Source of the DNA: Pseudomonadota bacterium
GTDB lineage: Bacteria; UBA10199; 2-02-FULL-44-16; DYJF01
DNA: 64,000 bases
NCBI GenBank assembly: GCA_043823065.1
Contig: JBDRBB010000008.1
Location: forward strand, 93,643-157,642
Direction of reading: 5' to 3'
Positions 4,900 through 52,375 of the stretch are shown one piece after another; the stretch's first letter is position 1, and every line of letters starts with the position of its first letter. The position numbers and the translations under genes were made by a program. The notes below the pieces were generated by a model that worked only from the letters and a program-made list of their open reading frames with translations, did not search any database and was not told the origin of the DNA.

Positions 4900-4902
4900 A
4901 CT

Positions 4903-6875: not shown

Positions 6876-6882
6876 GTTATAA

Positions 6883-6913: not shown

Positions 6914-7110
6914 TTACAGAAATTAGAGGCAGGAGAAAAGTAATTAATTTCTAGGCCATTTGTGCTGACAAACCTTTTTTAAGAATATGTTTTTGGATTA
7001 AATTTTTGCCAAAGACAAAATATAACATTAACCCAATGCTAGCCAAGAATATTAATCCAAAGCCAAATCTTGTTTAGGTTGGCAATTAAAACCCCCTAAA
7101 AACCTTAATT

Positions 7111-9439: not shown

Positions 9440-10131
9440 AAAAAATTATTTATCTAGGGTTGCTACTTTCATTCTTGTCGTCCCCTGCTTTGGCAGCGAC
9501 AAACGCTTCTTCAGCTATAATAAGACTTTACAAGGCCTATATGTCAACCAGCGGTGACTGCTCGTCGCCAGAAGTGTTCTTTGATGCTGCCAGCGATCCA
9601 ACGACCTATCCCAACGGCTATGCCGAAGTAGACATGGTCAACAATCCGACGATAGGCAGCGGCTCTCTGACTGGCGGAACCTATCAGTGCGTTATCTTCA
9701 AAATGTCTGATCAGATCACCTTTACGGCAGCTGATGATGAAGGTGCCCAGTGCGTTCAAGATCAGACATACACGACCGATGTTTGCTGGAATTGGAACGA
9801 TAACGTGGTCATCAAGAACCCAGAAACTAATGAGGAGACGCTATGCACAACCATGGGTGAGCCAGCCGAAACCATTTGGGTTTATATTAGCACCTGGTCG
9901 ACCCTCTTAACAGGATCAGGGTGCGAGGACTGCGACGGGTTTATTCCGCCGACAACTGATGGTGACACGAAAAACGGCTATAAGTTAACAAACGCTGTTG
10001 ATCTTGGCAGTAATATTATTGGGACGTTTGTTTTCGGAACCGATGGTAAAGTCGTTACTGAACAGTCAGGGGGGCTGGAACGGTGCGGATTAGAGACTCC
10101 TGATTTTTCATTCAGAGTCGAGGCGCAGTAA
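9436..10131 (+). CDS. Secreted Cys-rich protein of unknown function
   Basis: Start trimmed to MKKIIYLGLLLSFLSSPALA (signal peptide) with SD GAAAGGAG upstream. About 10 Cys. Confidence 0.55.
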   Translation: MKKIIYLGLLLSFLSSPALAATNASSAIIRLYKAYMSTSGDCSSPEVFFDAASDPTTYPNGYAEVDMVNNPTIGSGSLTGGTYQCVIFKMSDQITFTAADDEGAQCVQDQTYTTDVCWNWNDNVVIKNPETNEETLCTTMGEPAETIWVYISTWSTLLTGSGCEDCDGFIPPTTDGDTKNGYKLTNAVDLGSNIIGTFVFGTDGKVVTEQSGGLERCGLETPDFSFRVEAQ

Positions 10132-22153: not shown

Positions 22154-22157
22154 TAAG

Positions 22158-22199
22158 ATTAAGGGGTCAAGTCTTGCGTTTCGCGTTTTGAATCTACTT
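22158..22199. repeat. Repeat A copy 3
   Basis: Abuts the ATPase start codon (ATG at 22151-22153). Two substitutions relative to copies 1 and 2. Confidence 0.6.
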
Positions 22200-22213
22200 T
22201 AAAAAATCATAAA

Positions 22214-22247
22214 CAAAAACCCCGCAAATGCTTGCGGGGTTTTGTTT
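22214..22247. terminator. GC-rich hairpin ccccgcaa/ttgcgggg flanked by T/A runs on both strands (terminator for tRNA-His)
   Basis: Seen directly, just 3' of the tRNA on the minus strand. Confidence 0.5.
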
Positions 22248-22251
22248 TCTG

Positions 22252-22327
22252 GGTGGCTAGAGGGATTTGAACCCTCGGCCTTCTGGGCCACAACCAGACG
22301 CTCTAACCAAGCTGAGCTATAGCCACC
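22252..22327 (-). tRNA. tRNA-His (anticodon GTG)
   Basis: Folds as a cloverleaf with an 8-bp acceptor stem including G-1:C73, which is the hallmark of tRNA-His. Anticodon loop TTGTGGC. T-arm GAGGGTTCAAATCCCTC. CCA is not encoded. Confidence 0.85.
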
Positions 22328-24929: not shown

Positions 24930-24936
24930 TTCTTTG

Positions 24937-25018
24937 TGCCCAGGGCGGGATTTGAACCCGCAAGGGTTACCCCATACGCCCCTCAAACGTACGTGTATGC
25001 CAATTCCACCACCTGGGC
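24937..25018 (-). tRNA. tRNA-Leu (anticodon GAG), long variable arm
   Basis: Acceptor GCCCAGG/CCTGGGC. Anticodon loop TTGAGGG. Variable arm TGGGGTAACCCTT. T-arm GCGGGTTCAAATCCCGC. Confidence 0.85.
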
Positions 25019-25035
25019 AGATGCTGCTACATTAG

Positions 25036-25060
25036 ATTCCCGCTTTCGCGGGAATGACAA
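25036..25060. repeat. REP-like hairpin, single-ended copy (minus-strand TTGTCATTCCCGCGAAAGCGGGAAT)
   Basis: Almost identical to 52299..52327. Lies between the secG stop and tRNA-Leu. Confidence 0.5.
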
Positions 25061-27381: not shown

Positions 27382-28382
27382 AAGGATTTTCCCATATAGT
27401 TTGCAAAATCCATCATGCGATAGCAAAAGCCCATTTCATTATCATACCAGCCAATGATTTTTACCATATTATCAATCACTTTTGTGGAAAGACCATCTAC
27501 GATAGAAGAATGAGTAGCGCCGTTAAAATCAACTGAAACTAGAGGTTCTTCGCAGAATTCCATAACGTTTTTTAAAGAACCATTAGCTTCTCTTTTTAAG
27601 GCTGCATTTACAGTTTCAACAGTAATTGGTTTTTTGCAAACTGCCACCAAATCAACGCAGGACACATTGGGCGTTGGAACGCGAATGGCCATGCCGTCTA
27701 ATTTGCCAGCTAATTCTGGAAGTACCAAGCCAACTGCTTTGGCTGCACCAGTTGTGGTTGGAATTTGAGATAGAGCAGCAGAACGGGCTCTTCTTAAATC
27801 TTTGTGTGGAGCATCCAAAATACATTGGTCATTAGTATAAGCGTGAATAGTGGTCATTAAACCGCGTTCAATAGTAAAGTTTTCATGTACTACTTTGGCA
27901 ATTGGAGCCAAACAGTTTGTAGTACAAGAAGCATTGGAAACCACATGATGCTTATCTGGTTGATAAGTTTCATGATTAACGCCAAACACAAAAGTTGCTG
28001 TATCTTTTTCCTTGGCTGGAGCAGAAATAATAACTTTTTTGGCGCCAGCAGTGAGGTGCTTGGAAGCATCAGCAGTTTTGACAAATTTGCCAGTGCATTC
28101 CAAAACAATATCTACGCCTAAATCTTTCCAAGGAAGTTTTTCAGGCTCTTTTTCACAAAAAGTTTTCATCTTGTTTTTGTTAACAGTTAAGGTTCCTTCA
28201 GTGGCAGTTACTGTGCCTTTAAAACGACCATGAGTGGAATCATATTTGAAAAGATGGGCCATAACATTGGTGGGAATGAGATCATTTACTGCTACAAATT
28301 CAAAATTTGGGTTGTCAGCTGCAACTCTTAAAGCCAGTCTACCAATTCTGCCAAAACCATTGATCGCTACTTTTAATGCCAT
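27378..28382 (-). CDS. gap: Glyceraldehyde-3-phosphate dehydrogenase
   Basis: NGFGRIGR NAD-binding motif. Catalytic ASCTTNCLAP. Confidence 0.95.
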   Translation of the reverse strand: MALKVAINGFGRIGRLALRVAADNPNFEFVAVNDLIPTNVMAHLFKYDSTHGRFKGTVTATEGTLTVNKNKMKTFCEKEPEKLPWKDLGVDIVLECTGKFVKTADASKHLTAGAKKVIISAPAKEKDTATFVFGVNHETYQPDKHHVVSNASCTTNCLAPIAKVVHENFTIERGLMTTIHAYTNDQCILDAPHKDLRRARSAALSQIPTTTGAAKAVGLVLPELAGKLDGMAIRVPTPNVSCVDLVAVCKKPITVETVNAALKREANGSLKNVMEFCEEPLVSVDFNGATHSSIVDGLSTKVIDNMVKIIGWYDNEMGFCYRMMDFANYMGKSL

Positions 28383-28463
28383 AAATTCCTCCTGTTATTT
28401 TAAGTTTTTTATTATCTTGATTTCAAAGTTGCGGGAGTATACATCCTAGCACCTTAGAGTCAA

Positions 28464-30920
28464 GTGTTCTTAAAAATTACTATGTTACTGCCAAAAATCG
28501 TAAAATTTGTAGTGCAAAAAGTGGTTCGTTACTATCTGGTGGTTTTATTATTAGCAGGTCTATTAACTGCTGTGTGTTTTCCGCGTGCCTCTAAATTTTT
28601 TGCTAATATTAATACTGACTTAACCAAGTTAATACCCGAACACTACAAAAGCGTTGAGTCGATAACTGAAATTCGGGAAAAGTTCAAGTCAATTAAGACA
28701 GCTATTTTAGTGGTAGAAGATGAGAATCCCCAGGTTGCCCAAGACCTAATGGCCAATCTGGCGACTTTTTTGGAAAAAGATCCCATAATCGATGAGGTAG
28801 AATATAAAAAGCGTGGCTACCAGTTTTTTGAAGATCATGTGCTTTTGTTCTTAGAATTAGAGGACTTAGAAACTATTCGGGATAGAATAGACCGCCGTAT
28901 TCAGCAGGAAAAGCTGGGCAGTTTGTATATAGATTTCGAGGATAATGGTGAAGATGAAGAGTTTAAGTTTGGAGACATAGAAAGTAAGTATAAGAGCAAA
29001 TATAGCTCAGGCTCCACAAGCCCCTATTATGCCAATGATCAGGAAACTGTGTATGCCATGTATATTTATCCGCTAAAGGATCCTGAGGAGATTACAGATA
29101 GCAAGAAATTCTATGAAAATTTACAGCAAAAGGTTGCCCAGTTTTTTAAGGAAAATAAATATCCAAGTTCAAAAATCTATTTTACAGGAACAATTCGCAC
29201 CCATGTTGATGAGTATGACACGCTTATTCATGATTTGAAAAAAGCAGGTTTAATTTCAGGGTTGGGCATTTTTTTGATTCTTTCCCTGTATTTTAGACGA
29301 GTCATAACTGTGGGGTTATTGTTTTTGCCAATTTCCATGGCAATTTTGATTACTTTTGCTTTTAGTTCTTTGTTTATTGAAAATCTTAATTTAGTTACTT
29401 CGTTTTTGTTTGCCATTCTGGGAGGTTTGGGTGTTGAAATTGGCATTCATTTTTTGTCGCGCTATATAGAAGAGCGACGAATTGGCAAAGATATCAACCA
29501 GGCGCTATTTGCTGTTTTGTATCATACTGGCGGTTCTGCCTTAACTTCAGCAGTTTCAGTGGCAGCTACGTTTTTAATTTTAATGGTCAATGATTTTAAG
29601 GGATTTTCCGAATTTGGCTTTATTGCTGGTTTTGGTTTAATTATGAATTATCTTTGTTATGTTTTGGTGTTTCCTTCATTGCTGGTATTGGCAGAAAAAC
29701 TGCATTTATTAAGATTTAAGCGAAGTATTGGTTTGGAGTTTGATCAAACTCAGATTACTTCTCAGTATATATTAGAACATCCCAAGCGTTTTCCAGTGCC
29801 TAAATTTGTTTTGGTTTGTTTAAGTGTTTTTGCCATTATTTCCATTATTGATTTACCCAGCCTGGAATTTGAATGGCGGTTTTCCAAAATCAAATCCAAT
29901 ATTCCAGCATCTTTGGAGGCAAGAGAAAAACAACGTTTAACCAGTAAAAGTGTTAATTCGCCAGCTATCGTAATTTTAAAAAATAAGGAACAAGCTCAGG
30001 CAATTAAGCAAGCTGTAAAAAAATTGCAAGAAAATCCTGGTTCTTCGGTTAATGACTTCAAGTCGTATTATGATTTAATGCCTGATGATCAAATGGCTAA
30101 GCTGGAAGTTATTGGGCAGATGCACAAGCTTTTGGAAGACGATACCTTAAAATTGGTTAAGGGCGAGCACAAAGAAGATATTGAAAGGTTTAAAGATGTG
30201 TTGGCCAAGATGAACCCTATTAATGAAGAAGATATTCCGCCCAAGATTAAAGAAATTTTTCAGGGCAATGTAAAAGGAGATACAGCTCAAATTGGTTATA
30301 TTAATCCCTTGCCGCTTTTGGAAATGGATGATGGCCGCAATGCTATTCGCTTTGCTAAGGAAATTCAACAAATAGAAACACCGCAAGGAACTTTTTATCC
30401 TTCTAATAATGCCATTGTTTTTGCAGATGTGCTGCGCACCATGATGAAAGATTCAAAAAGGGTAATTATCATGGCCTTTGGCATTGTGTTTTTGATTGTG
30501 TTATTAGATTTTCGTAGTGTTAAAGCCACCTGCTTAGTGCTTTCGCCAATTGTTTTAGGTGTGCTTTTCTTAAGCGGTTTTATGTACATCTTAAAACTCA
30601 AACTCAATTTCTATAATATGATTGCAGCACCCATTGTGGTTGGAACCAGCATAGATAATTCTGTGCATTTGTATCATCGGTATAAAGAAATGGGTAAGGG
30701 TTCTTTGATTTATGCCCTGCGTTCTACAGGTGGAGCAGCTTTTATGAGTTCCATGACCAATATTTGCGGGTTTTTAGGTTTGGTGTTTGCTTTTCATAAT
30801 GGTTTGCAATCTATTGGTGATTTGGCAGTGACTGGAATGGTAGCGTGCCTGATAACCACTTTGGTTTTCTTCCCGGCGTTGTTGCAGGTTATAGAGGATA
30901 GAAAGGTAAAGAAGATATGA
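28464..30920 (+). CDS. MMPL/RND-superfamily exporter (COG1033 type)
   Basis: Two 6-TM bundles, each preceded by a large extracytoplasmic domain. 818 aa. Confidence 0.7.
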   Translation: MFLKITMLLPKIVKFVVQKVVRYYLVVLLLAGLLTAVCFPRASKFFANINTDLTKLIPEHYKSVESITEIREKFKSIKTAILVVEDENPQVAQDLMANLATFLEKDPIIDEVEYKKRGYQFFEDHVLLFLELEDLETIRDRIDRRIQQEKLGSLYIDFEDNGEDEEFKFGDIESKYKSKYSSGSTSPYYANDQETVYAMYIYPLKDPEEITDSKKFYENLQQKVAQFFKENKYPSSKIYFTGTIRTHVDEYDTLIHDLKKAGLISGLGIFLILSLYFRRVITVGLLFLPISMAILITFAFSSLFIENLNLVTSFLFAILGGLGVEIGIHFLSRYIEERRIGKDINQALFAVLYHTGGSALTSAVSVAATFLILMVNDFKGFSEFGFIAGFGLIMNYLCYVLVFPSLLVLAEKLHLLRFKRSIGLEFDQTQITSQYILEHPKRFPVPKFVLVCLSVFAIISIIDLPSLEFEWRFSKIKSNIPASLEAREKQRLTSKSVNSPAIVILKNKEQAQAIKQAVKKLQENPGSSVNDFKSYYDLMPDDQMAKLEVIGQMHKLLEDDTLKLVKGEHKEDIERFKDVLAKMNPINEEDIPPKIKEIFQGNVKGDTAQIGYINPLPLLEMDDGRNAIRFAKEIQQIETPQGTFYPSNNAIVFADVLRTMMKDSKRVIIMAFGIVFLIVLLDFRSVKATCLVLSPIVLGVLFLSGFMYILKLKLNFYNMIAAPIVVGTSIDNSVHLYHRYKEMGKGSLIYALRSTGGAAFMSSMTNICGFLGLVFAFHNGLQSIGDLAVTGMVACLITTLVFFPALLQVIEDRKVKKI

Positions 30921-31064: not shown

Positions 31065-32435
31065 ATGAATAACAAAGACACAATTTGCGCTATCGTAACT
31101 CCTCCTGGCACAGGCGGTGTAGGCATAGTACGTATTAGCGGTGGGAAGGCTCAAGAAGTTTTGCAAAAAATTTGGCAAGGAAAAGTCAAAGTTGCTAACT
31201 TTGAATCCCACAAAATGCATTTAGGTCATATCCAGGATCCACAATCCAAAAACCCGGTGGATAATGTTTTAGTAGTAATCATGCGTGCCCCGCATTCTTA
31301 TACAGGAGAAGATGTAGTGGAAATCTCTGGCCATGGCGGGCAGATGCTTTTGGGCAGGATCTTGGCTAGCTGTCAAAAAGCAGGAGCACGTTTAGCCCAG
31401 CCCGGCGAGTTTACCAGACGGGCGTTTTTAAATGGCAAAATGGATCTGGCTCAAGCTGAAGCAGTTGCAGATTTGATTGCTGCTAATAATGAATCTGCCG
31501 CGCGTTTGGCGTTAAATCAATTAGAAGGAAAATTATCTGAAACAATTTCAAGCTTGCAAGAAGGGCTAACTAATTTGCGAGCCTTTGTAGAAGCAGCCAT
31601 AGATTTTCCAGAAGAAGATATTGAGTTTATCAAAAAAGAAGGTGTGGCAGAAAAGTTAAAAGTTATAGCAAGTAAGCTGCAAACATTGATTAGCACTTAT
31701 GCAGACGGCCGTCTTTTGAAAGACGGAGTAAAAGTGGCGATCATTGGCAAACCAAATGTAGGTAAATCAAGTTTGTTTAATAAGTTGGTTGGTAGTGCGC
31801 GAGCAATTGTGCACTACAGCCCAGGCACAACTCGTGATTTAGTTTCAGAAACCATTCAGTTGGAAGGGGTTGCTTTTCATCTAATTGATGCAGCAGGAAT
31901 TAGAGATGAGGGACATGAAGTAGAGATGATTGGCATTGAGCTGGCTCGCGAACAAGTTAAAAAAGCAGATCTAATCATCAGGGTGGTTGATGAGCCCAAA
32001 GTTGAGGAATTAAAAGGACTTGATCTGCAAAAGACAATTTTGTGTTTAAATAAAATTGATCTATTAACTTCGGAGCAAAAAACTTCTTATTTAAAAAACT
32101 TGGGTACGGATTGGTATGCAGTGGTTTCAGTTTCAGCTTTAGAGGGAAAAGGTTTATCAGATCTGCAAAAAGCTTTGTCTTTATTTGCGGTTTCAGGGAA
32201 GAACAAAGGTAGCCAAGAAGGCGTGGTCATTACTTCTGCCAGGCATAAGCAAGCTTTAAAAGAAGCTGTTGTTAATATTAGCGAGGCCATCAAGGCAGTA
32301 AAGGAAAACAGTTCAGCAGAATTCATTGCTGAACATCTCACCCAAGCCAGTGGGGCTCTGGGCCAAATCATTGGCCAAGTTAGCACTGATGACATCTTAA
32401 ACCAAATCTTCTCCAAATTTTGCATAGGGAAATAA
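31065..32435 (+). CDS. mnmE: tRNA modification GTPase MnmE
   Basis: G1 motif GKPNVGKSSLFN. C-terminal CIGK motif. Confidence 0.92.
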   Translation: MNNKDTICAIVTPPGTGGVGIVRISGGKAQEVLQKIWQGKVKVANFESHKMHLGHIQDPQSKNPVDNVLVVIMRAPHSYTGEDVVEISGHGGQMLLGRILASCQKAGARLAQPGEFTRRAFLNGKMDLAQAEAVADLIAANNESAARLALNQLEGKLSETISSLQEGLTNLRAFVEAAIDFPEEDIEFIKKEGVAEKLKVIASKLQTLISTYADGRLLKDGVKVAIIGKPNVGKSSLFNKLVGSARAIVHYSPGTTRDLVSETIQLEGVAFHLIDAAGIRDEGHEVEMIGIELAREQVKKADLIIRVVDEPKVEELKGLDLQKTILCLNKIDLLTSEQKTSYLKNLGTDWYAVVSVSALEGKGLSDLQKALSLFAVSGKNKGSQEGVVITSARHKQALKEAVVNISEAIKAVKENSSAEFIAEHLTQASGALGQIIGQVSTDDILNQIFSKFCIGK

Positions 32436-32439
32436 ACCC

Positions 32440-33521
32440 TTGTTATTCCCGCGGAAAAACCAGACGGACCAAAATTGGACAGTTGGTGCATCAAAACGCT
32501 ACACCTGTTAGCAACTGAGTCGGTGCAAAAGCCCTATTTTACGCACTTTTTATTTTGGCACGAGGTTTGCTTTATATTTTAGCATGCCCTACTTACCTAG
32601 ATACTTTATTATCTGCGATGACTCCTACTTCCATGTGACTTGGCAATGCCACAACCAAGATTGGCTTCTAAAATGGGATTGGGCCAAGGAAATCTATTAT
32701 AATCTCCTGCGTAAATATAAAGATAAGTATGGAGTAGAAATCTATGCTTATAACTTTATGGATAATCACCCGCACCTTGCTGGTCACTTAAGATCTAAAG
32801 ATGAATTTTCTGCCTTTTTTCGCCTAGTTAATGGTTTATTTGCCAAAGCTGTTAACAAACGCCTTAACAGAAAAGGTCAGGTCATTATGGATAGATTCAA
32901 ATCTCCTAGAATTGAATCTGATAATCATTTGATAAATGTCATGACTTATATTGATCTAAATCAGCAACGAGTAGGCAAAGTAGATCATCCAAAGCAAAAT
33001 ACATGGTCATCTTATAGGTACTATGCATATGGCCAAAAAGATTCTCTGATTACCCCTTCACCTTCATATTTACTATTAGGAAGAACACCAACAGAGAGGC
33101 AAAATGAATATAGGAGATTAGTTGAGGGATTAATTGGAAATGACAAAGAAATAAATATATCTAAAACCTATTTCATAGGAAACCCAGATTGGGTAATTGC
33201 CAGATACAAAGAGTATAGAATTTTGTGGAAGACTGTCTATATCAAGCAAGGCCTATCCAATGCTAATTCTCCGCCAGGATAGCAAAAAAAGCAAGCAAGC
33301 GTGCAGTTTAATTTGAGAAATTAAGGATTTGATTGTAGAGCTGTATCCAAATTTAGCCAAATTCAAAAAAAATACCAAAATACAAATCGACAAGCGAAAA
33401 TTTAGTTTTGCAAGAGAGGTTTGCAAGTTTCAGATATTTGTAAATTGCCAATCAAATACAAAGTTGAGCAACTTTTATTCAAAAACTAATCAATAAGTAA
33501 AAATTGGTCCGTCTGAGTTTC
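32440..33521 (+). mobile_element. IS200-like / RAYT-like element: HuH transposase gene flanked by 12-bp inverted repeats, with a REP half-site at the left end
   Basis: Left end has TGTTATTCCCGCGG, a REP-like half hairpin. Inverted repeats are cagacggaccaa (32461-32472) and ttggtccgtctg (33505-33516). Confidence 0.4.
32584..33282 (+). CDS. HuH Y1 transposase-like protein (IS200/Transposase_17 fold; REP-associated tyrosine transposase-like)
   Basis: HuH motif MDNHPHLAGHL. YIDLNQQRV (similar to the YIxxNPV motif) and a Tyr-rich region SSYRYYAY. 232 aa. Confidence 0.55.
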   Translation: MPYLPRYFIICDDSYFHVTWQCHNQDWLLKWDWAKEIYYNLLRKYKDKYGVEIYAYNFMDNHPHLAGHLRSKDEFSAFFRLVNGLFAKAVNKRLNRKGQVIMDRFKSPRIESDNHLINVMTYIDLNQQRVGKVDHPKQNTWSSYRYYAYGQKDSLITPSPSYLLLGRTPTERQNEYRRLVEGLIGNDKEINISKTYFIGNPDWVIARYKEYRILWKTVYIKQGLSNANSPPG

Positions 33522-33648
33522 GAGAGCTTCCAAAATTTTTGACGCATGAAGAAATTTTGGATTTAACGAAGCAATGCTCGTCCGTCCAGCTAATTAAAGG
33601 ACAGAATTCCAGGGGCATGATACTTAATAGGCTATCTGATGATTTTAT

Positions 33649-34140
33649 TTATGACTTCATGTTTACGTACTGAAGCGGGATTTTATAGTCTTTGGAATTC
33701 AGGGTTTGAATAACCTTCTGAAGATCATCTATTTTTTTGCCAGTAACGCGTACCTGTTCATCCTGAATTGCAGCCTGAACCTTTAGGTTTAAATCTTTGA
33801 TTGTTTTCACAAGCTCGCGGGCAATATCCTTGGATATTCCCTCATTGATTTTAATGGTTCTTTTTAGCAGCCCTTGCGAGGTTGGTTCGATTTTTTTGAA
33901 TTCCAGGCACCTTGGATCTACTTTTCTTCTTACGCAATTCGCGCGAATCATTTCTTCAAGTAACTTCATCTTCATCTCGTCAGAGGTGGTAATCTGCAGA
34001 GACTTCTCTTTTTTATCCAGATTTATAGATGTTTTCGAATTCTTAAAATCATATCTGGTTGTTACTTCGCGAGATGTATTATTAACCACGTTGTCCATTT
34101 CAGCTAGATCAACTTTATTTACAATATCAAATGACGGCAT
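33649..34140 (-). CDS. yajQ: YajQ-family nucleotide (c-di-GMP)-binding protein, UPF0234
   Basis: N-terminus MPSFDIVNKVDLAEMDNVVNNTSREVTTRYDFKNS matches the YajQ pattern. 163 aa. Confidence 0.85.
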   Translation of the reverse strand: MPSFDIVNKVDLAEMDNVVNNTSREVTTRYDFKNSKTSINLDKKEKSLQITTSDEMKMKLLEEMIRANCVRRKVDPRCLEFKKIEPTSQGLLKRTIKINEGISKDIARELVKTIKDLNLKVQAAIQDEQVRVTGKKIDDLQKVIQTLNSKDYKIPLQYVNMKS

Positions 34141-34295
34141 ATTAGCTCCTTTTTTGTTAAACCTTTTATCAAACCTTGTCTTAACTAACTCATCTATGCC
34201 TTTTTTGGCCAGAAAAAAACGATTTTAGGATATTAAGCAAATTGACAAATATTTCAGTTTATAGGCGTATTTCTGTGGATTGAAGGGAGGGGTCT

Positions 34296-34772
34296 ATGCC
34301 ATTTGTTCAGGTATACCAAGGCTTGCGGTCTAATGGAGTAACTGCTGCTGAGATGAACCAACTTACCCAGGCTGTGGCAGAAGCAGAAGGAATTATCAGA
34401 AATGAAAATGGAGAAGTGATTAACGCTACTGCAGATACTTTAGATCTGTTTATGGCCATAAACAGAGATATAAGATCTTTTGCTTATAACCGTCCAGAAT
34501 TTGAAGAACAAGCCCTTGGTAATTTTCAAAATTTTTTTTCAGGGGTAGATCAATTTCTACAACATAGATGCCAGGCCATTGGCAGCCAGCATTGGCAGCA
34601 TGCGGCTGGTTTAACCTTTGCTGGCGGAATTAGTGTTAGCATAGGAGCCGTTCTGCTCTTGCCTGGCTGGCTAAAGTTAATAGCTATAATTCCTGGAGTA
34701 GTTACTATTGGCGCGGGTCTGTATCATCAGCATGTGCATTATAATATTTTGCCAGAATATTGCCGGTATTGA
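34296..34772 (+). CDS. Hypothetical protein with a C-terminal TM hairpin
   Basis: ORF with a plausible start. No recognised motifs. Confidence 0.35.
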   Translation: MPFVQVYQGLRSNGVTAAEMNQLTQAVAEAEGIIRNENGEVINATADTLDLFMAINRDIRSFAYNRPEFEEQALGNFQNFFSGVDQFLQHRCQAIGSQHWQHAAGLTFAGGISVSIGAVLLLPGWLKLIAIIPGVVTIGAGLYHQHVHYNILPEYCRY

Positions 34773-34773
34773 T

Positions 34774-37287
34774 TTAAAAATATAAAATCAATTCCAATAT
34801 TTCATTATCAGCAACTTTGATGTTGATCCATTTTTTGAGCAGCACGCTTGCTTCAGGATCAACATAGCCAGCTTCCAAATAATAATCTCCTGGTTCTATT
34901 TCATAAATTTGCCAATCATCACCGGTTTCGCCAAGGATAAGCTCACGATCAGAACCATATTCAAATACCTTAAATTTACAATTAATAATGATATTATTTG
35001 AACCTCGACCAATGATTTTGAGCTTGCCAGTGGTAAAAATGCTTTCTTGGCTAATCAATTTGCCGTTTTTTATTTCAATGTCTTTTAACCAATTGGTGGT
35101 TTCAATCTTATCTTTGGTTTCTGCATTTATTGCCTTGGCGTTATAAAACCCTTGAGGAAGTTCAAATACCACCCAATCGCTTGATGCGTTTGCTGTGCCA
35201 AAGGGTTCATCCAGGCCTGCCCGATAAATCATAAATTCTGTTTCAATTGGTTGTTCTTTGGAATTAATGCCGCGCACACGCAAAGTGCCATAACTAAACT
35301 GAGCTACCTTTTCCACCGGTTTGGTGGCATCAATGCGCACATTGGGAATTAATGTTGTTGGTTTGGGCGTAGTTAAAATATTTTTTGAAGCCAGGATTTC
35401 GTATGTGTCTGGTGGAACAGGTACTGTAATGGTTTTGTCTGTTGCCACAAATTTTACTTTAGCAATAGATTCGGCTTTGGGCATCAGGCGAATATCAAAC
35501 TCAGCATCAGTTAATTTGCCTTCTGTATCTACGGCAGACAAGGTTAACAACCCCATTTCAAATGAAGCTAAGACTTCTGTGATTTCTGAAGCTTTCACAG
35601 ATACAGCATTGGCTTTGGAGCGCGGACTAATAATCATTTGAGGATCCTGACCAATAAAGACAATATCGTAATTTCCAGGAGCTACATTAACGGTGCCGCC
35701 GGATTTGGTTAAGGCGCCGCTAACATAAATCTGGTCTGGTTTTTCTGTTTTATAGATTTGATAGATAAACGGTATTTCTGTTTTTTGGGAAGTGATTCCT
35801 TCTAGTTTTAAAGTGCCTTCTTGAAATAAATATTTAACCAAGGTGCTTTCGCCTGTTTTAATGTCCACTCCAGATTCGGTTAAACGAATTCTTTCTGGAA
35901 TTGCCCCTTCTTGTTCAGAAGTGATGTCATATTGTCCTGGAGGTAAATAAATTTGTTGGGGGTGATCAGTTATTCTGGCTTCAGCAATAATTTCTGGTTG
36001 GCCTTTTTTGCGAATTTCAAAACGGGCCGGGCTGGGGTTGCCTGTAGCATCTATGGCAGCCAAGGTTATAGCGCCTAAGTCAAAATTTATTTTTTGTTCA
36101 ACTTTAGTTTTTTCTAAAATTTCTACACCTTTAATGATTTTAGATGGTTTTTTAAATTCAGGTGAAGCTGTGTATTCCACCATAATATCGTAAGTTCCAG
36201 GAGCCAAGCTTAACAGCTTGGTGCCAAAGCTGGTTTCAGTTTTAACCACTTCATTGGTCTGGCTCTTGTAAACAGTTAGGGTAACAGGAATGGGTGTGGC
36301 GCCAATAACTGTATTTAAGCGCAAATTATAAGGCAGCTTAGAGCTTACTGCTTCATCCAAAGATTTTCTGAGTTCTTCCTCATTGCGAGCTAAATAGAAT
36401 TTGCCATCAGAATTTTTGGCAATGCAGCTGAGTTTTTCTTGATCTGCGCTACTAATATCAAATCCAATCACTTGAATTGAAGTTCTAGGGTTTTGGGTGT
36501 GAATGGTTTGAGCTATCTGGCAAGGATCAGCTTGGCAAGTGTCAGAGCCATCAGTTATTAGCACAATGATTTGGTCAACGTCAGTCATAGCAGGAAAATC
36601 ATTGCTAGCAGCTTCTAGGCTCGCAGCTATTGGGCTTTCCCCCTGAGCGGTCAAAGGCAGAACAACTTCTTTGATTTTATCTAAATTTGGCTGGCTCACT
36701 GGATATAGTTGTCGCATATCTGCACAATCGCGATCATTTAATGATGTTTGCGAGCCAAAGGTTCTAATGCCTACATTACGCGGAAACTCAGTATCTTTTA
36801 AGGATAACATTACTTCAAACAAGGCCTTTTTTTGCAGGTCCAGTTTACTCTGAGTTGTGATGCCATAAATTGCACTTTGGCTGCCAGATGCATCTAAAAT
36901 AATATTGATGTTGGTTTTGGCATCCACCAGCTTAGGTGCAAAAGGCACTTCAGGGAATTGTTTTTTGCCAACTTCTTCAATAACCGGGGTGGGTATGTCA
37001 GCAGCGCCCAGGTTGGCTAGGGTTTCTGGCTCGGTTGGCGCTGCTTTTTGCTCCGTCTGAGTAGGTTCTGTTTGCTCCGTCTGAGTAGGTTCTACAGGTT
37101 CAGGAGCTGGTTCTATGGTCTTGGGACCTGGTAGCTCAATCTTCTTGCTTTGAGTTGTGCCAGATTGGGCAGGTTTTTGTTTTTCTTTGTTTTTACAGCT
37201 TGTTAAGCTACCCAGACTAAAACAAATAGCTAGGCAGATTACAAAAATAAGATAGTTTAATTTTCGCATAATTTGAATATTTACCAT
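34774..37287 (-). CDS. Large secreted lipoprotein with a von Willebrand factor A domain and repeated beta-sandwich domains
   Basis: Lipobox LTSCKNK. Pro/Thr/Glu linker with a tandem 24-nt repeat (TEPTQTEQ x2). VWA MIDAS-like motifs (ILDASGS, LITDGSDTC). Confidence 0.7.
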   Translation of the reverse strand: MVNIQIMRKLNYLIFVICLAICFSLGSLTSCKNKEKQKPAQSGTTQSKKIELPGPKTIEPAPEPVEPTQTEQTEPTQTEQKAAPTEPETLANLGAADIPTPVIEEVGKKQFPEVPFAPKLVDAKTNINIILDASGSQSAIYGITTQSKLDLQKKALFEVMLSLKDTEFPRNVGIRTFGSQTSLNDRDCADMRQLYPVSQPNLDKIKEVVLPLTAQGESPIAASLEAASNDFPAMTDVDQIIVLITDGSDTCQADPCQIAQTIHTQNPRTSIQVIGFDISSADQEKLSCIAKNSDGKFYLARNEEELRKSLDEAVSSKLPYNLRLNTVIGATPIPVTLTVYKSQTNEVVKTETSFGTKLLSLAPGTYDIMVEYTASPEFKKPSKIIKGVEILEKTKVEQKINFDLGAITLAAIDATGNPSPARFEIRKKGQPEIIAEARITDHPQQIYLPPGQYDITSEQEGAIPERIRLTESGVDIKTGESTLVKYLFQEGTLKLEGITSQKTEIPFIYQIYKTEKPDQIYVSGALTKSGGTVNVAPGNYDIVFIGQDPQMIISPRSKANAVSVKASEITEVLASFEMGLLTLSAVDTEGKLTDAEFDIRLMPKAESIAKVKFVATDKTITVPVPPDTYEILASKNILTTPKPTTLIPNVRIDATKPVEKVAQFSYGTLRVRGINSKEQPIETEFMIYRAGLDEPFGTANASSDWVVFELPQGFYNAKAINAETKDKIETTNWLKDIEIKNGKLISQESIFTTGKLKIIGRGSNNIIINCKFKVFEYGSDRELILGETGDDWQIYEIEPGDYYLEAGYVDPEASVLLKKWINIKVADNEILELILYF

Positions 37288-37396
37288 AAGTTAAAAAATT
37301 TGAAAATGAGTAAAAGCAAAAGAAAAACTGCTTTCATTTTGAGAAAAAAAAAGGTATTGTTCAGCTAATATCGTCAAAAATCCTATAAAAACCTTT

Positions 37397-38578
37397 ATGT
37401 CTATAAAAAATATTAAGAAAATTAAGCAAAAGAGAGTTAAGAAAACCCCAGCGTCAAGAAAACTGCAAGTCCCTTGTCAAAAAACCCTACTAGCAAAAAT
37501 TAAAACCTTAGAAAATTTGGTAAAGATTATTGAACGCGGCAAACGTCAGTGGGAAGCAACCTTTGATGCAATTGCTTCACCAGTTATGATTGTTGGCAAA
37601 GATTATAAAATAGAGCGGGCAAATATTTTTTTGGCAAATTTAATTGGGGCGGAGATAAAAAAGGTTGTTAATAGGAAGTGTTATCAGGTTTTTGCTGGAC
37701 GAGAAGAAATCTGCGTGGGCTGCCCGGTAAAAGAAGCTGTGGCCATTTATCGACCTTGTTCAAATATGCTTAATAATAAAATTGCTCGAAAAGATTTTGA
37801 AGCTCATGCTTTTCCCTATCTAAATAGGGAGGAAGTATCTGAAGCAGTGGTTATGTATTATCGGGATGTTACCCAAGAAAATTACTTACATCAGGAGTTA
37901 ATCCAAAATGAAAAAATGGCAGCCATTGGTCTTATTTCTGGTGGTATTGCCCATGAAATTAACAATCCTTTAGCAGTAATTTTGGTTTCAGCCCAATATT
38001 TAGTAGAAAATAATCGGCACAATGAGGCTCTTTTAAGTGATTTGAAAAAAATAGAAACAGCAGCCATGCAATGCAAAAGCGTGGTGCGAGATTTGCTTGA
38101 TTTTGCGCGTATTTCCAAAGCAACAGATAAATTGTTGATGGATATTAATTTGGTAATTGAAAAGATGATACCCTTTATTAAAGCTGATTTGGCTTTAAGA
38201 AATATTGAGCTTGTTTTGAAATTGGGTTCAAGTTTGCCCAACTTAAACGGCAGGCAAGACCGCATTCAGCAAGTACTTCTAAATCTTTTTACCAATGCTT
38301 GCCATGCTATGTCCCAAGGAGGAATTTTAACCATTGCCTCTGCCACCAACAATAAAAAAGAGATTTTAGTAACTGTAAGTGACACAGGCCAGGGCATGGA
38401 CGAGGAACAATTAAACAGATTGTTTGAGCCGTTCTATACCACCAAACAAGGCGATGAAGGCACAGGTTTGGGTTTGTCAATTTCCAAACAGATCGTGCAA
38501 GAACATGGTGGCAAGATTGAGGTTCAAAGCAAAAAAAATAAAGGAACTACTTTTAAGCTTGTATTTCCTGGGTGTTAA
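37397..38578 (+). CDS. Cytoplasmic PAS sensor histidine kinase
   Basis: PAS region with CVGCPV. H-box IAHEINNPLAVI. G-boxes SDTGQGMD and GTGLGLSI. Confidence 0.85.
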   Translation: MSIKNIKKIKQKRVKKTPASRKLQVPCQKTLLAKIKTLENLVKIIERGKRQWEATFDAIASPVMIVGKDYKIERANIFLANLIGAEIKKVVNRKCYQVFAGREEICVGCPVKEAVAIYRPCSNMLNNKIARKDFEAHAFPYLNREEVSEAVVMYYRDVTQENYLHQELIQNEKMAAIGLISGGIAHEINNPLAVILVSAQYLVENNRHNEALLSDLKKIETAAMQCKSVVRDLLDFARISKATDKLLMDINLVIEKMIPFIKADLALRNIELVLKLGSSLPNLNGRQDRIQQVLLNLFTNACHAMSQGGILTIASATNNKKEILVTVSDTGQGMDEEQLNRLFEPFYTTKQGDEGTGLGLSISKQIVQEHGGKIEVQSKKNKGTTFKLVFPGC

Positions 38579-38594
38579 GTAAGCGGGGAGGATT

Positions 38595-39977
38595 ATGCAG
38601 CATATTTTAATTGTCGATGATGAACCAGGTATCCGTTCAACCTTGCAAAAATATTTAAGCAACAAAAACTATAATGTTTCTATAGCTGGAAGTTGTGAAG
38701 AGGCTTTTAAAATTTTAGAAGAAGAGCCAGTGCAAGTTGCTTTGGTGGATTTGGTTATGCCTAAAATGGACGGCATTCAATTGATTCACAAGATGAAGCA
38801 GATTCAGCCATCCTTGGTGCCGATTGTAATCACTGGTTTTGGCACTATTACTTCAGCAATTCAGGCCATGAAAGCCGGCGCTTTTCATTATATTACTAAG
38901 CCTTTTGAGCTAGACGATATTTCCCTAATTGTTAATGCAGCTTTGGAACATTACAACCTAAAAGAAGAGAATATTTCTTTACGCAAGCAACTTAAGACAG
39001 AATATAAATTTAAAAATATTGTTGGCAAAAGTGAACCAATGCAGGCGGTTTTTGATTTGGTGGATAAAGTTGCCACAACTGATTCCACAATTTTGATTTT
39101 AGGAGAAAGTGGTACTGGTAAAGAGCTGGTGGCCAGGGCCCTGCATTACAACAGTCGGCGCGCTGAAAAAGCCTTGGTAACCGTGAACTGTGCGGCCATT
39201 CCAGAAGGTCTTTTAGAAACAGAACTTTTTGGGCATGTTAAGGGAGCTTATACTGGTGCTATTTCTACTGCACCGGGCCGTTTTGATAATGCTGATCAGG
39301 GAACAATTTTTTTAGATGAAATTGGTGATATGAGTTTTAAGTTGCAAGTCAAGTTATTGCGTGTCTTGCAGGAACAATCATTTGAGCCAGTTGGTTCAGC
39401 CAAAACTCATAATGTTGATGTGCGTGTAATTGCCGCTACCAATCATGATTTGGAAAAAGCGGTTAAAGAAAAACGTTTTCGGGAAGATCTTTATTATCGA
39501 TTAAATGTAATTCCCATTCATATTCCACCGCTGCGTGAACGCAAGGATGACATACCTTTGCTGGCTAATCATTTTATTGAAAAATTTAATCGAGAAGGCG
39601 AATGCGCCATAGACGGCATTGATGATACAGCTTTGGCTATTTTAATGGATTATGACTGGCCAGGCAATGTGCGCGAACTGGAAAACACCATTGAGCGAGT
39701 TGCGGTGTTAAAAAGAAAAGGACAAATTACCCCGACTGATTTACCGCAAAAAATTGAGGCCTGGCAAGGTACAGCTCAAACAAACCAGAAAAAAGTTAAA
39801 AAAATTAATTTAGATGAGAATATCTCTTTTAGAGAGTTAGTTGCTGATTATGAAACCAATTTAATCAAGCAAGCTTTAGAAAAAGCAGGTTGGAACAAAA
39901 ATAAAGCAGCTAATTTATTGGGGCTAAATCGTACTACTTTGGTGGAGAAACTTAAAAAATTAAAGATCAATAAATGA
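38595..39977 (+). CDS. Sigma-54-dependent response regulator (REC plus AAA+ sigma-54 interaction plus Fis-type HTH), NtrC family
   Basis: REC with Asp in ALVDLVMPKMDG. GESGTGKE. GAYTGA (the GAFTGA motif). C-terminal HTH. Confidence 0.9.
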   Translation: MQHILIVDDEPGIRSTLQKYLSNKNYNVSIAGSCEEAFKILEEEPVQVALVDLVMPKMDGIQLIHKMKQIQPSLVPIVITGFGTITSAIQAMKAGAFHYITKPFELDDISLIVNAALEHYNLKEENISLRKQLKTEYKFKNIVGKSEPMQAVFDLVDKVATTDSTILILGESGTGKELVARALHYNSRRAEKALVTVNCAAIPEGLLETELFGHVKGAYTGAISTAPGRFDNADQGTIFLDEIGDMSFKLQVKLLRVLQEQSFEPVGSAKTHNVDVRVIAATNHDLEKAVKEKRFREDLYYRLNVIPIHIPPLRERKDDIPLLANHFIEKFNREGECAIDGIDDTALAILMDYDWPGNVRELENTIERVAVLKRKGQITPTDLPQKIEAWQGTAQTNQKKVKKINLDENISFRELVADYETNLIKQALEKAGWNKNKAANLLGLNRTTLVEKLKKLKINK

Positions 39978-41419
39978 TTAAAGAAACAGACCTATTAATA
40001 ATTGATAATGATAGCGTTCAAGCTCATCTCTTAGAGGGGTTGGCTGAAGATAAGCGCTGGTCCTATGTGCATGCCAAAACAGGTGAAGAAGCCATCCGTC
40101 TTTTAAATCAGCAGCTATTTAAATTAGTGATTGTTGATGTGAAATTACCTGGGTTTAGCGGTTTGCAAGTTCTGGAATATATCAAGCTTAATCGAATTTT
40201 TGCTGAAGTAATTATGCTCGCAGATCCAGAGAGCATGGAGGTTGCGGTTCAGGGAATTAAAAAAGGCGCCTATGGTTATCTTACCAAACCCTTGCTTGAT
40301 TTAAGCAAGGTGCAAATAACTGTGGAAAAGGCCTTTGAGCATTATGGCTTAAATGCCCAGGTTCGGGATTTAAAAAGAGAAAAATTAGATCGCATTTCTT
40401 ATGAAGGTATTATTGGTCGTAGTAAAAAAATCCAGGAAATCTTTAATACTATCGACAGCGTTGCCGCTACTAATTCCACCATCTTAATTACCGGAGAAAG
40501 CGGTACTGGCAAGGAAATGGTGGCCAAGGCCATTCACAGCAGATCGAATCGCAAAAATAAAAAATTTGTGGTTATTAATTGTGCGGCTATTCCAGAACAA
40601 CTTATGGAGTCAGAGTTGTTTGGTCATAAGCGGGGTTCTTTTACCGGAGCTATTGCTGATAAAAAAGGTCTTTTTGAAGAAGCAAATGGCGGCACTGTTT
40701 TTTTAGATGAGATTGGCGAAGTATCTCCGGTTATTCAAGTTAAGCTCTTGCGAACTATTCAAGAAGGAGAGGTTAAGCCAGTTGGTTCAGGTGAAACTTC
40801 TCAGGTAGATGTGCGCATAATTTCAGCCACGAATCAAGATTTGGTGGAGTTAGTAAAACAAGGTCTTTTTAGAGAAGATCTTTATTATCGCCTAAATGTA
40901 ATCACCCTGCATATGCCATCACTCAGAGAAAGAATGGAAGATATCCCCTTGCTAACTTATCATTTCTTGGAAAAATATAGCCAAAGAGTGGGCAGAATTG
41001 TGAGCAAAATTTCCATTGATGCTTTGCAAGCCCTGCAAAACCATGAATGGATTGGTAATGTTAGAGAATTGGAAAACGTAATTGAACGGGCCGTGGTTTT
41101 GAGTTCAGATGAAACACTTTCTATTTCTGATTTGCCGCCCCGGGTTTTGGGAGATGCTTTTTATCTTTATAAAGAAGATGATCTTGATTTAAGTAAATAT
41201 TCCTACAGGGAAGCTAAAGAGAGGGCCTTGGTCAATTTTAATCGATCCTATTTGCGTAACTTGCTCAAACAAACTTCTGGCAATATTTCCTTTGCCGCCC
41301 AGAAAGCGCATATGGATCGCAGTAATTTTAAAAAATTGATTAAAAAGTATGGAGTGGATCCACGAGAAATTGTTTCGCCAGCAAGGGAATGGTCATTGAA
41401 GCCTGGCGGATCAAAATAA
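39974..41419 (+). CDS. Sigma-54-dependent response regulator, second paralogue
   Basis: REC with Asp in VIVDVKLPGFSG. GESGTGKE. GSFTGA. 4-nt overlap with the upstream gene. Confidence 0.9.
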   Translation: MIKETDLLIIDNDSVQAHLLEGLAEDKRWSYVHAKTGEEAIRLLNQQLFKLVIVDVKLPGFSGLQVLEYIKLNRIFAEVIMLADPESMEVAVQGIKKGAYGYLTKPLLDLSKVQITVEKAFEHYGLNAQVRDLKREKLDRISYEGIIGRSKKIQEIFNTIDSVAATNSTILITGESGTGKEMVAKAIHSRSNRKNKKFVVINCAAIPEQLMESELFGHKRGSFTGAIADKKGLFEEANGGTVFLDEIGEVSPVIQVKLLRTIQEGEVKPVGSGETSQVDVRIISATNQDLVELVKQGLFREDLYYRLNVITLHMPSLRERMEDIPLLTYHFLEKYSQRVGRIVSKISIDALQALQNHEWIGNVRELENVIERAVVLSSDETLSISDLPPRVLGDAFYLYKEDDLDLSKYSYREAKERALVNFNRSYLRNLLKQTSGNISFAAQKAHMDRSNFKKLIKKYGVDPREIVSPAREWSLKPGGSK

Positions 41420-41431
41420 GGGAGGGGTTTC

Positions 41432-42805
41432 ATGAATAACGCAGTACTAATTGTCCATGAATCAGAACCAGTCATTATTGAAAAAACATTGGCAGATAAT
41501 GATCTTCAATTAATTCGCACGGATGTTAAGGCTTTAGAGGGAAGATTGTATCATGAGGCGCCAGAGGTGGTAATTTTCTATAGTGAAAAAGAAGATGCCA
41601 ACCATGCCCTGCAGGTTTTAAAAACTGTTAAGAGTTTTGATGATAATTTGCCGGTAGTGGTTATTGCCAAGCAAACTGGTTTAGCTGAAGTTGTAAACAT
41701 TATGAAAGCCGGGGCTTATGATTTTTTTCCCCTGCCTTTGGATAAAACCAAGTTCAATAATTCGGTTAATAATTCCATAAGACTATATAATCTTACTAAA
41801 CGCGTTTTTTTATTAGAAAACCAAATGGGCTTAAGGGAAGGTTTTGATGATATTATTGGAACTAGTCCAGTGATGCAGGATATTTATCGTACCATTGAAA
41901 TTGTGGCCAAAAGCAATGCTACAGTGCTGGTTTTGGGCGAGAGCGGCAGTGGCAAAGAATTGGTAGCCAAGGCCATTCATCGTCATTCTCCGCGTGTGGA
42001 CAAGGTTTTTATGGATATTAATTGCGGAGCTATTCCTTCTGAGCTGTTGGAAAATGAAATGTTTGGCCATGAAAAAGGCGCCTATACTGGAGCAGATCGC
42101 CGCTATATCGGCAGTTTCGAGCGGGCCAGTGGTGGCACCATTTTTCTAGATGAAATAAGTGAAATGAGCCCGAATTTGCAGGTTAAGCTGCTGCGGTTTT
42201 TACAAGAGCGAAATTTTACGCGCGTGGGATCAAGCGAACCAATTAATGTGGATGTGAGAATTGTGGCAGCTACCAATCGAGATTTGGCAAAATGCGTGAA
42301 AGAAGGCGTTTTTCGCGAAGATCTATATTACCGGCTAAACGTGGTGCCTATTTCAATTCCTAGCCTGCGCGATCGGAGGGAAGATATTCCTTTACTAGCC
42401 AAATACTTTTTGCAAAAACTTTCTGCTAAGAACGAACGGATTTTTTTAGATTTTGCGCCCCAAGCAATGGAAGCGCTAATATCCTATGATTGGCCTGGAA
42501 ATGTGCGCGAACTGGAAAACACCATTGAGCGAGTAGTGGTTTTGAACAATGATAGTAAAGTAAAGCTCAGCCACTTACCTTTGGTAATTAGAGAAAACTC
42601 AGAAAGTAAGCTAGAAGATAGACCTAAAGTTGAGCCAACCTTTGTTGAACAACAAAAAATTGTTCCTCTGGAACTGGTGGAAAGATATGCTATTGAAGCT
42701 GCCCTACGAAAGTGTTATGGAAATGTTGCTGAAGCATCAAACAAACTTAAAATAGGCCAGGCAACATTGTATAGAAAGATAAAGCAATATGGATTAAGAA
42801 CTTAG
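41432..42805 (+). CDS. Sigma-54 enhancer-binding protein with a degenerate (pseudo-)receiver domain
   Basis: GESGSGKE and GAYTGA present. The N-terminal REC-like domain has EVVIFYSEKED at the position where the phospho-acceptor Asp is expected. Confidence 0.8.
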   Translation: MNNAVLIVHESEPVIIEKTLADNDLQLIRTDVKALEGRLYHEAPEVVIFYSEKEDANHALQVLKTVKSFDDNLPVVVIAKQTGLAEVVNIMKAGAYDFFPLPLDKTKFNNSVNNSIRLYNLTKRVFLLENQMGLREGFDDIIGTSPVMQDIYRTIEIVAKSNATVLVLGESGSGKELVAKAIHRHSPRVDKVFMDINCGAIPSELLENEMFGHEKGAYTGADRRYIGSFERASGGTIFLDEISEMSPNLQVKLLRFLQERNFTRVGSSEPINVDVRIVAATNRDLAKCVKEGVFREDLYYRLNVVPISIPSLRDRREDIPLLAKYFLQKLSAKNERIFLDFAPQAMEALISYDWPGNVRELENTIERVVVLNNDSKVKLSHLPLVIRENSESKLEDRPKVEPTFVEQQKIVPLELVERYAIEAALRKCYGNVAEASNKLKIGQATLYRKIKQYGLRT

Positions 42806-52298: not shown

Positions 52299-52375
52299 TT
52301 TGTCATTCCCGCGAAGGCGGGAATCTAGCCTGTTATAACGGACTGGATCCCCACTTTCGTGGGGATGACAAACCT
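52299..52375. repeat. Compound REP-like element: outer TGTCAT...ATGACAA ends enclosing two hairpins (attcccgc/gcgggaat and atccccac/gtggggat)
   Basis: First hairpin is near-identical to 25036..25060. Same termini as the 835 and 1589 copies. Confidence 0.5.

Follow-up and report, generated by a model that had tools for sequence, protein, structure and literature searches.

Subclass 2.1 is the second largest group of TnpA_Y1 transposases, and to our knowledge the tyrosine transposases associated with terminal inverted repeats (TIRs) have never been studied biochemically. The latter, termed TIRYTs, are encoded by genes similar to those of the tyrosine transposases associated with repetitive extragenic palindromes (REPs), known as RAYTs, and together with their TIRs they form units called TIRtrons; the TIRs have GGGGWSAS in common and occur in dimers or clusters (Di Nocera, De Gregorio, Rocco 2013, PMC3733652). 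GGGGWSAS is found in most, but not all, of the described TIRYT members, and TIRs may form dispersed families (PMC3733652). Most TIRYTs fall into TnpA_Y1 subclass 2.1 (Quentin et al. 2018, PMC6006769), which corresponds to RAYT Group 1 (Bertels et al. 2017, PMC5581495) and is characterized by proteins of about 238 aa with NHVH or NH[YF]H, W[EQ]/FQ and YIELNP or Y[IV]HLNP motifs, an SS proximal tail, a distal tail resembling a helix-turn-helix (HTH), and no REP (PMC6006769). Here we describe a Y1 HuH gene lying between two short inverted repeats in a 64,000-nt stretch of DNA (hereafter the window) from a Pseudomonadota bacterium (assembly GCA_043823065.1, contig JBDRBB010000008.1, positions 93,643 to 157,642). 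The closest known kind is the TIRYT/TIRtron of TnpA_Y1 subclass 2.1, not the RAYT/REPtron, and we consider it probable that the window carries a stand-alone, TIRtron-like unit of about 1.05 kb, with one Y1 HuH gene bounded by short TIRs. An invariant tip, an unusual HPH motif and conserved sigma-54 wiring are new relative to the TIRtron concept.

The window family resembles TIRtrons in having a single Y1 HuH gene, whose product of about 230-240 aa ends in an extension with a W-S-S-Y motif, and inverted repeats that are unrelated to REPs, lie at fairly fixed distances and are sometimes iterated or clustered; there are a few diverged copies per genome and the distribution is patchy. Two canonical TIRYTs, from plasmids of Iodobacter (L062) and P. 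aeruginosa (L063), match most of the window protein at 27-33% identity, carry MTNHVH, LWE[GS]R and YIELNP, and have TIRs (GGGGTCAG/GGGGACAG) of the GGGGWSAS type, with iterated left tips in L063. The window family differs from them in its core (NWGACGRAG instead of GGGGWSAS), in its motifs (NHPH/MDRFK/YIDLNQ instead of NHVH/LWEGR[FY]/YIELNP), in the length of the 3' spacer (about 220 nt vs. 2-60 nt in L062 and L063) and in a sigma-54-type promoter without a ribosome-binding site, whereas L063 has a normal Shine-Dalgarno sequence and both L062 and L063 lack a sigma-54 motif near the ATG. In the plasmid record of L063 (NZ_CP116719.1, 13578-15469), which has three query matches, the left end of about 90 bp is duplicated (AAAGGGGACAG... 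occurs twice), and the TIRYT gene is followed 9 nt on by a gene for a DNA/RNA non-specific endonuclease.

Inverted repeats and the extent of the unit

A perfect 12-bp repeat, CAGACGGACCAA, is found at 32461-32472 and as its reverse complement at 33504-33515. It extends imperfectly to 17 nt at 88%, giving a left TIR at 32456-32472 (plus strand) and a right TIR at 33504-33520 (minus strand), with the core CAGACGGAC at 32461-32469 on the left and on the minus strand at 33515-33507 on the right. A preliminary description of this locus had proposed a RAYT/IS200-like HuH transposase gene flanked by 12-bp inverted repeats about 1.05 kb apart, and the repeats are borne out: a perfect inverted repeat of at least 12 bp between the intergenic flanks (148 and 366 nt) was obtained in 6 of 2000 shuffles (P=0.003). 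For comparison, 59 related loci were fetched and inverted repeats were sought between the flanks of each gene; 39 elements could be assessed. The consensus core [CAT][AT]GACG[GA]A[GC] (NWGACGRAG), inverted at both ends, was present in all 39, with variants by lineage (CAGACGGAG, AAGACGAAG and ATGACGAAG). The left core lies 98-185 nt (median about 127) upstream of the ATG and the right inverted core 192-306 nt (median about 221) past the stop codon; the units are 1029-1186 bp long, 1055 bp in the window. That this inverted core recurs with like spacing in 39 related loci puts the reality of the inverted repeat in the window beyond doubt.

Several observations locate the ends of the unit at these repeats. 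The sequence beyond the cores is unrelated between elements, and the DNA similarity of paralogs within a genome runs from core to core, ending within a few bases (L001/L048, aligned over 2368-3426; L051/L054; L035/L037; L028/L030). Within an element the two ends co-vary (positions 0, 6 and 9-11), the match being 86% for cognate vs. 47% for non-cognate ends at position 0 and 51-68% vs. 26-35% at positions 9-11. The surroundings change from locus to locus, no neighbouring gene family being found in more than 4 of 60 loci. The closest genome available (L060; MnmE 80% identical) is collinear with the window over 28000-30898, mnmE and 34774-38000 at 76-78% DNA identity, but between mnmE and a gene for a VWA protein it has two other small genes, with no Y1 gene and no unit. 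A conserved single-copy gene kept at one site without repeats, which had been named beforehand as the case that would speak against a transposase locus, is not what the relatives contain. The cores at fixed distances, the paralog similarity that stops at them, the lack of conserved neighbours and the absence of the unit from a syntenic relative together argue for a TIR-bounded unit of about 1.05 kb; on these comparisons the inverted repeats are its true boundaries, at 32456/32461 and 33515/33520 in the window.

The tips are not always single. Of the 39 elements, 14 have extra tip copies stacked just outside an end, compared with a background frequency of 0.04 per 200 nt, and the arrays include L053 1-240 (seven 19-bp units, AAGACGAAGGTTCGAAATT), L007 1860-2010, L026 5950-6130 and two in L011 with varied spacing (4790-4900 and 5930-6100; four and six copies). 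The window has only the two terminal tip copies, without iteration. A solo left end, comprising the core and the palindromes TTCGATTTTCGG/TCCGAATTTCGGA, is found at 4192-4253 of L017, 750 bp upstream of a complete unit; it is 96% identical to the left end of L014 and has no partner right end nearby. Two matches to the tip motif CAGACGGAGCAA in the window (37048-37083, minus strand) were set aside as coincidental, being coding repeats (TQTEQ) in the VWA protein gene. The 3' non-coding spacer (33283-33503, plus strand; about 220 nt) is kept in length across the family and varies in sequence: the spacers align poorly save near the right end, no open reading frame (ORF) is common to those of the 39 elements, and Rfam gave no match over 32300-33700.

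The gene occurs once in the window and the repeats only at its two ends, and the search for additional copies that had been recommended for this locus was successful in related genomes, several of which hold 3-6 diverged copies of the unit. Paralog pairs within a genome are at best 91-97% identical, most of them 77-88%. A second copy (P0054, 66% identical) is most likely present on the source contig. The copies being 77-97% identical, rather than identical, movement would be slow, old or hidden by assembly, and assemblies of uncultured genomes may collapse identical copies. About 16 of the 59 loci (coordinates read by eye, not a computed count) lie within about 400 bp of a contig end, a clustering that suggests repeats breaking assemblies. 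Judged by its sequences, this is a discrete, duplicating and horizontally scattered unit, for which catalysis and mobility are predicted.

The Y1 HuH protein and its relatives

The one ORF between the two repeats (32584-33282, plus strand) encodes a TIRYT-like Y1 HuH protein of 232 aa, in keeping with the HuH/Tyr protein that had been assigned to this place. Residues 14-124 match Pfam PF01797 (Y1_Tnp) over model positions 5-119 of 121, at 35.5 bits against a cut-off of 23. The comparison with hidden Markov models (HMMs) thus supports the Y1 half of the preliminary description and not the RAYT half, as NCBIfam NF047646 (REP_Tyr_transpos) scored 45.4 bits against a cut-off of 80; ten more distant relatives scored 26-49 bits with this model. 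NCBIfam NF033573 (transpos_IS200) was missed as well, with 16 bits against a cut-off of 55.

The protein contains N61-H62-P63-H64-LAGHL, Y122 and W141-S-S, and H62, H64, Y122 and S142-S143 are invariant among 106 homologues. H62-P63-H64 and Y122 fit a His-hydrophobic-His metal motif and a single catalytic Tyr on the next helix, although a middle Pro is unusual; the residues listed at this position of the HuH motif are L, V, I, F, Y and M (PMC6006769). Measured against subclass 2.1, the length of 232 aa and the W-S-S motif fit, whereas the HuH (NHPH), W (MD, within MDRFK) and Y (YIDLNQ) motifs deviate; the class 2 tyrosine motif is Y-x3-N-P, and some family members have YIDLNP. HMM similarity is continuous from the window family to canonical 2.1-type proteins.

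An AlphaFold2 model built on the 106 homologues reached a pLDDT of 81.3, with low confidence in the C-terminal tail, where Pfam detected no HTH domain. In a Foldseek search against the PDB the top 30 matches were Y1 transposases only, the best being E. coli TnpA_REP (4er8_A; E=2.1e-5, TM 0.70 normalised to the target, 161 aligned columns, 20% identity), followed by the TnpA proteins of IS200, IS608 and ISDra2. At the level of sequence, neither the family profile nor the core domain retrieved a Y1 protein from the PDB, and these proteins were found by the fold search alone. The protein belongs to the Y1 HuH transposase superfamily.

With TnpA_REP, a RAYT of subclass 2.2, the window unit shares the Y1 HuH core, the single catalytic tyrosine and mutually inverted flanking repeats. 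REPtrons, however, have GTAG-tagged palindromic REPs that are dispersed and of high copy number, whereas the window unit has non-palindromic repeats of 9-17 nt confined within the window to its two ends, and the two proteins are only 20% identical. The IS200/IS605 transposases (IS608 and ISDra2 TnpA) have in common with the window protein the fold of the HuH/Tyr catalytic core and a presumed single-stranded DNA substrate. They differ in being shorter and having a Y-x3-Q motif, and their elements in having dissimilar subterminal hairpins, no TIRs, near-identical multi-copy insertions and often tnpB.

The top 120 homologues are 59-73% identical over the full length and come from metagenome-assembled genomes (MAGs) with varied taxonomic labels (Deltaproteobacteria/UBA10199, Pseudobdellovibrionaceae, Oligoflexia, Myxococcota and 'Pseudomonadota'). 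Among 1.84 billion cluster representatives, 84 clusters (E<1e-30) make up the tight family, which grades into 5,585 clusters (E<1e-10), mostly of 220-250-aa proteins with a common C-terminal extension. No relative of the window protein was found in phage records, and those in plasmid records are at most 33% identical.

A sigma-54-type promoter and a lineage-specific palindrome

The aligned 5' non-coding parts contain a block that matches the sigma-54 consensus TGGCAC-N5-TTGC, with a spacing of 12 nt from GG to GC. In 36 of 56 loci the strict pattern TGGCA[CT]N5[TC]TGC[TA] starts 28-32 nt upstream of the ATG, with near-matches in most of the others, and these 36 sites are about three quarters of the 47 pattern matches in 1.02 Mb. 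In the window, TGGCACGAGGTTTGCT (32556-32571, plus strand) is the only strict match and appears, from its pattern and conserved position, to be a -24/-12 promoter of the sigma-54 type. The ATG follows the GC of the -12 element by 13-17 nt, sigma-54 transcripts begin about 12 nt past this GC, and no Shine-Dalgarno sequence precedes the Y1 gene; on these grounds transcription is predicted to start about 2 nt before the ATG, and the mRNA would be leaderless. Sigma-70-like promoters and terminators showed no enrichment over shuffles within the unit. The literature surveyed makes no mention of a sigma-54/leaderless arrangement, and a pairing of a RAYT with sigma-54 was not found in it.

The stretch from the left tip to the promoter contains a palindrome that is specific to each lineage. 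In the window this is the imperfect palindrome GGTGCATCAAAACGCTACACC (32485-32505, plus strand), a probable enhancer (upstream activating sequence, UAS) for a sigma-54 activator. The dyad of the window lineage, GGTGCAGCGAAACGCAGCACC, has 76.7% of its cells paired over 10 close relatives, with three pairs changed on both sides; the covariation is modest, its score being reached by 12 of 500 shuffles. A related arrangement was found away from the ends of the unit. At 2520-2700 of L013 the palindrome CTGCCGCCATTTGATGCAGCTGCTGCAAATGGCGGCAG, which is also present in the left end of the Y1 units of that genome (L012 and L013), is central to two divergent sigma-54 -24/-12 promoters and is accompanied by no GACGRAG core. 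The genes served are unrelated, with an ATG 13 nt from each promoter; one encodes a metallo-beta-lactamase-fold lipoprotein and the other has no Pfam match, and both transcripts are apparently leaderless. This core-free module argues that the promoter module is functional and wired into the host, with the palindrome as enhancer, and that the GACGRAG cores serve differently, as ends.

A reversed tip core, CCTCCGTCAT, was also seen in L043 (6240-6360), about 85 nt upstream of a sigma-54-type promoter that lies 12 nt from the ATG of a neighbouring gene, which hints that tips or unit ends may come within enhancer range of host promoters. Three tandem genes for sigma-54 activator (Sigma54_activat) ATPases are present in the window at 38595-42805. 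They follow a histidine kinase gene (37397-42805 for the whole group) and encode enhancer-binding proteins of 460, 481 and 457 aa, of which the middle one lacks an HTH_8 DNA-binding domain by Pfam.

The truncated REP, rival explanations and significance

Six nt after the stop codon of mnmE (32433-32435) begins a 13-nt half-site, TGTTATTCCCGCG (32441-32453, plus strand), made up of a TGTT tag and the left stem arm ATTCCCGCG. Such a REP half-site had been noted in the preliminary description, and the match is exact: its tag and arm are identical to those on the left side of two hairpins, 25036-25059 and 52301-52324, and the three 13-nt sites in the window (32441-32453; 25047-25059, minus strand; 52301-52313, plus strand) compare with none in 100 shuffles. 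The half-site is outside the unit and ends one base before an A-rich outer extension (32454) and two before the imperfect 17-nt arm of the left TIR (32456), and the right arm, GCGGGAAT, is missing both after the half-site and after the right repeat. Three complete hairpins of this family, a pair of which forms an inverted doublet, are present in the window, with the structure TGTC-ATTCCCGC-GAAG-GCGGGAAT-CTA. They show the features of CGTC-1 REPs, namely a TGTC/TGTT tag, both variants of CGTC, an 8-bp stem starting with AT, a 4-nt loop (GAAG or GAAA) and a short tail, and as in that family they form head-to-head doublets (52301-52370), although the tail is CTA instead of the usual CCA. The CGTC-1 family includes dRS3 of Neisseria and RPE-6 of Rickettsia, and CGTC REPs are described as having no dedicated transposase and never flanking tyrosine transposase genes (PMC3733652). 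The inverted doublet resembles a REPIN, and the single copy at 25036-25059 is 18 nt from a tRNA-Leu gene (24936-25018).

Among the 59 related loci, hairpins with ATTCCCGCG were found in L013 (eight copies within 3.2 kb, 6671-9880) and L020 (two copies, 2256-2330) only, with one isolated half-site match in L024, and never beside the gene. The Y1 gene is therefore not their cognate RAYT, and the earlier assignment by REP association is not supported. We infer that the half-site at the junction is a truncated REP of the CGTC-1 type and not the cognate repeat of the enzyme. The hairpins of L013 and L020 are nearly identical to the window REPs, and a cognate enzyme for them is not apparent. The intact REP that had been anticipated downstream of mnmE in relatives was found in no strain, L060 having neither a REP nor the unit there.

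These findings leave several explanations to be weighed against a TIRtron-like unit. A RAYT that mobilises the ATTCCCGCG hairpins as its cognate repeats, with ATTCCCGCGAAGGCGGGAAT as the substrate, would account for the perfect half-REP right at the left boundary, for the three full hairpins of that family in the window and for the best fold match being the E. coli RAYT; moreover, the conserved GACG of the tip is CGTC on the other strand, the tag of the window REP class. We nevertheless regard it as very unlikely, given that the hairpins of L013 and L020 are always more than 900 bp from the gene, that the window has no REP on the right side, that the flanks in every lineage are NWGACGRAG repeats and not palindromic REPs, that the NCBIfam RAYT model is missed, and that CGTC REPs are reported never to flank such genes (PMC3733652). 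A different role for the REP, as target, is conceivable but rather unlikely: the TIR-bounded unit may have entered an existing REP at its loop, by insertion or recombination, and the right half of that REP may later have been lost by rearrangement. The REP is cut exactly past its left arm, one base before the A-rich extension, and relatives differ in the interval from mnmE to the VWA gene, which has thus been rearranged. The DNA on which Y1 enzymes act is single-stranded, hairpin loops included, as established for IS608, and REPs are known targets of insertion sequences (PMC3733652). No right REP arm lies beyond the right repeat, however, the other 38 elements adjoin neither a REP nor an obvious truncated palindrome, the nearest relative has no REP at the site, and no empty site was found in the same species. 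It would be a highly speculative step further to suppose that this sigma-54-controlled Y1 family recognises a CGTC-tagged site, that the junction is the footprint of processing a CGTC REP, and that the family or its relatives are the missing enzyme of CGTC REPs, an idea that arises because the invariant GACG of the tip reads CGTC and a REP cut at its loop joins such a tip.

The main rival is a domesticated host gene, in which the cores and palindromes would be regulatory binding sites (sigma-54 enhancers or repressor sites) travelling with a duplicated gene. The sigma-54 promoter is conserved, the left core, about 120 nt ahead of the predicted start, is at a distance typical of enhancers, the iterated cores look like enhancer arrays, and the reversed core of L043 is found about 85 nt before the sigma-54 promoter of a neighbouring gene. 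The protein is under strong purifying selection, and diverged copies within genomes, as seen here, are reported for class 2 TnpA_Y1 (PMC6006769). Still, the two other sigma-54 promoters of L013 use the palindrome without the core, which is thus dispensable for that module; the cores are inverted at both extremities and homology stops there; the genomic surroundings are never the same and the gene is missing from the syntenic relative; and the loci near contig ends are as expected of assembly-breaking repeats. On balance we consider domestication unlikely. An ordinary insertion sequence of the IS200/IS605 family would be in line with the Pfam match and with IS200, IS608 and ISDra2 among the fold matches. 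It is extremely improbable, as the transpos_IS200 model is missed, the protein has 232 aa with a conserved C-terminal extension vs. about 150 aa, the tyrosine motif is Y-x3-N-Q and not Y-x3-Q, the ends are inverted repeats and not two different subterminal hairpins, there is no tnpB, and the copies are 77-97% and not about 99% identical.

The TIRtron-like reading has to accommodate a number of observations that weigh against it. Identical or near-identical copies were not seen in the genomes compared, no target-site duplication is evident at any end pair, and no empty site was found; a scan of metagenomes for one in the same species with a 21-mer from the end of mnmE returned five unrelated organisms only, the 21-mer being unspecific because the C-terminal FCIGK motif is conserved. 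The window ends fold no better than shuffled sequence. The single promoter match in the window is not significant alone (0.64 expected), the sigma-54 assignment draws on pattern and conservation only, and the window palindrome is degraded, with 6 of 9 pairs. Catalytic competence is assumed for a protein with a Pro in the middle of HPH and MD in place of the usual W[EQ] motif, and its strong conservation (59-73% in the top 120 homologues) would equally fit a domesticated gene of benefit to the host.

If the unit is of the TIRtron kind, a host enhancer-binding ATPase at the lineage-specific palindrome would switch on the leaderless transcript, tying its activity to a host signal. The protein would then bind the tips, and the metal held by H62 and H64 together with Y122 would nick single-stranded DNA and rejoin it at the GACGRAG motif or next to it, on one strand at one end of the unit and on the opposite strand at the other, by analogy to TnpA_REP with its GTAG-tagged REPs and to IS608 TnpA. 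In this way the whole unit would be moved or copied, and tips would occasionally be duplicated. The copy in the window may be old or inactive, given its degraded palindrome and single tips.

Both neighbours lie outside the unit. On the left is mnmE (31065-32435, plus strand), encoding a tRNA modification GTPase of 456 aa with TrmE_N/MnmE_helical Pfam domains that is 100% identical to an NCBI MAG protein named MnmE, and on the right a DUF520/YajQ-family gene (33649-34140, minus strand; Pfam PF04461, 194.6 bits). The interval from mnmE to the VWA gene (32436-34773) also includes, beyond the half-site, the unit and the DUF520/YajQ gene, a 158-aa ORF without a Pfam match. In the counterpart interval of L060 (7371-8287), a relative 77% identical, the DUF520/YajQ gene is missing and genes for DUF6868 and DUF3617 proteins are found instead; the interval is a variable spot. 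Elsewhere in the window, at 20885-22326, a gene for an AAA_14/DUF4143 ATPase (422 aa, minus strand) directly adjoins a tRNA-His gene (22251-22326) and could mark the edge of an integrated element.

For annotation, this locus teaches that a REP fragment alongside a gene is not enough to name the gene a REP-associated transposase. The family offers an unusually clean case, with co-varying ends and tip iterations that resemble products of the enzyme, and its short invariant tip motif, GACGRAG, would be a direct substrate for work in vitro. The sigma-54 promoter and the enhancer palindrome, common to unrelated host genes in at least one genome, provide a regulatory handle. If this reading is true, a transposase-like gene is, as is rare, wired into a signal-dependent regulon of the host and translated from a leaderless mRNA, and there would be a route to inducing the protein and watching its effect on DNA.

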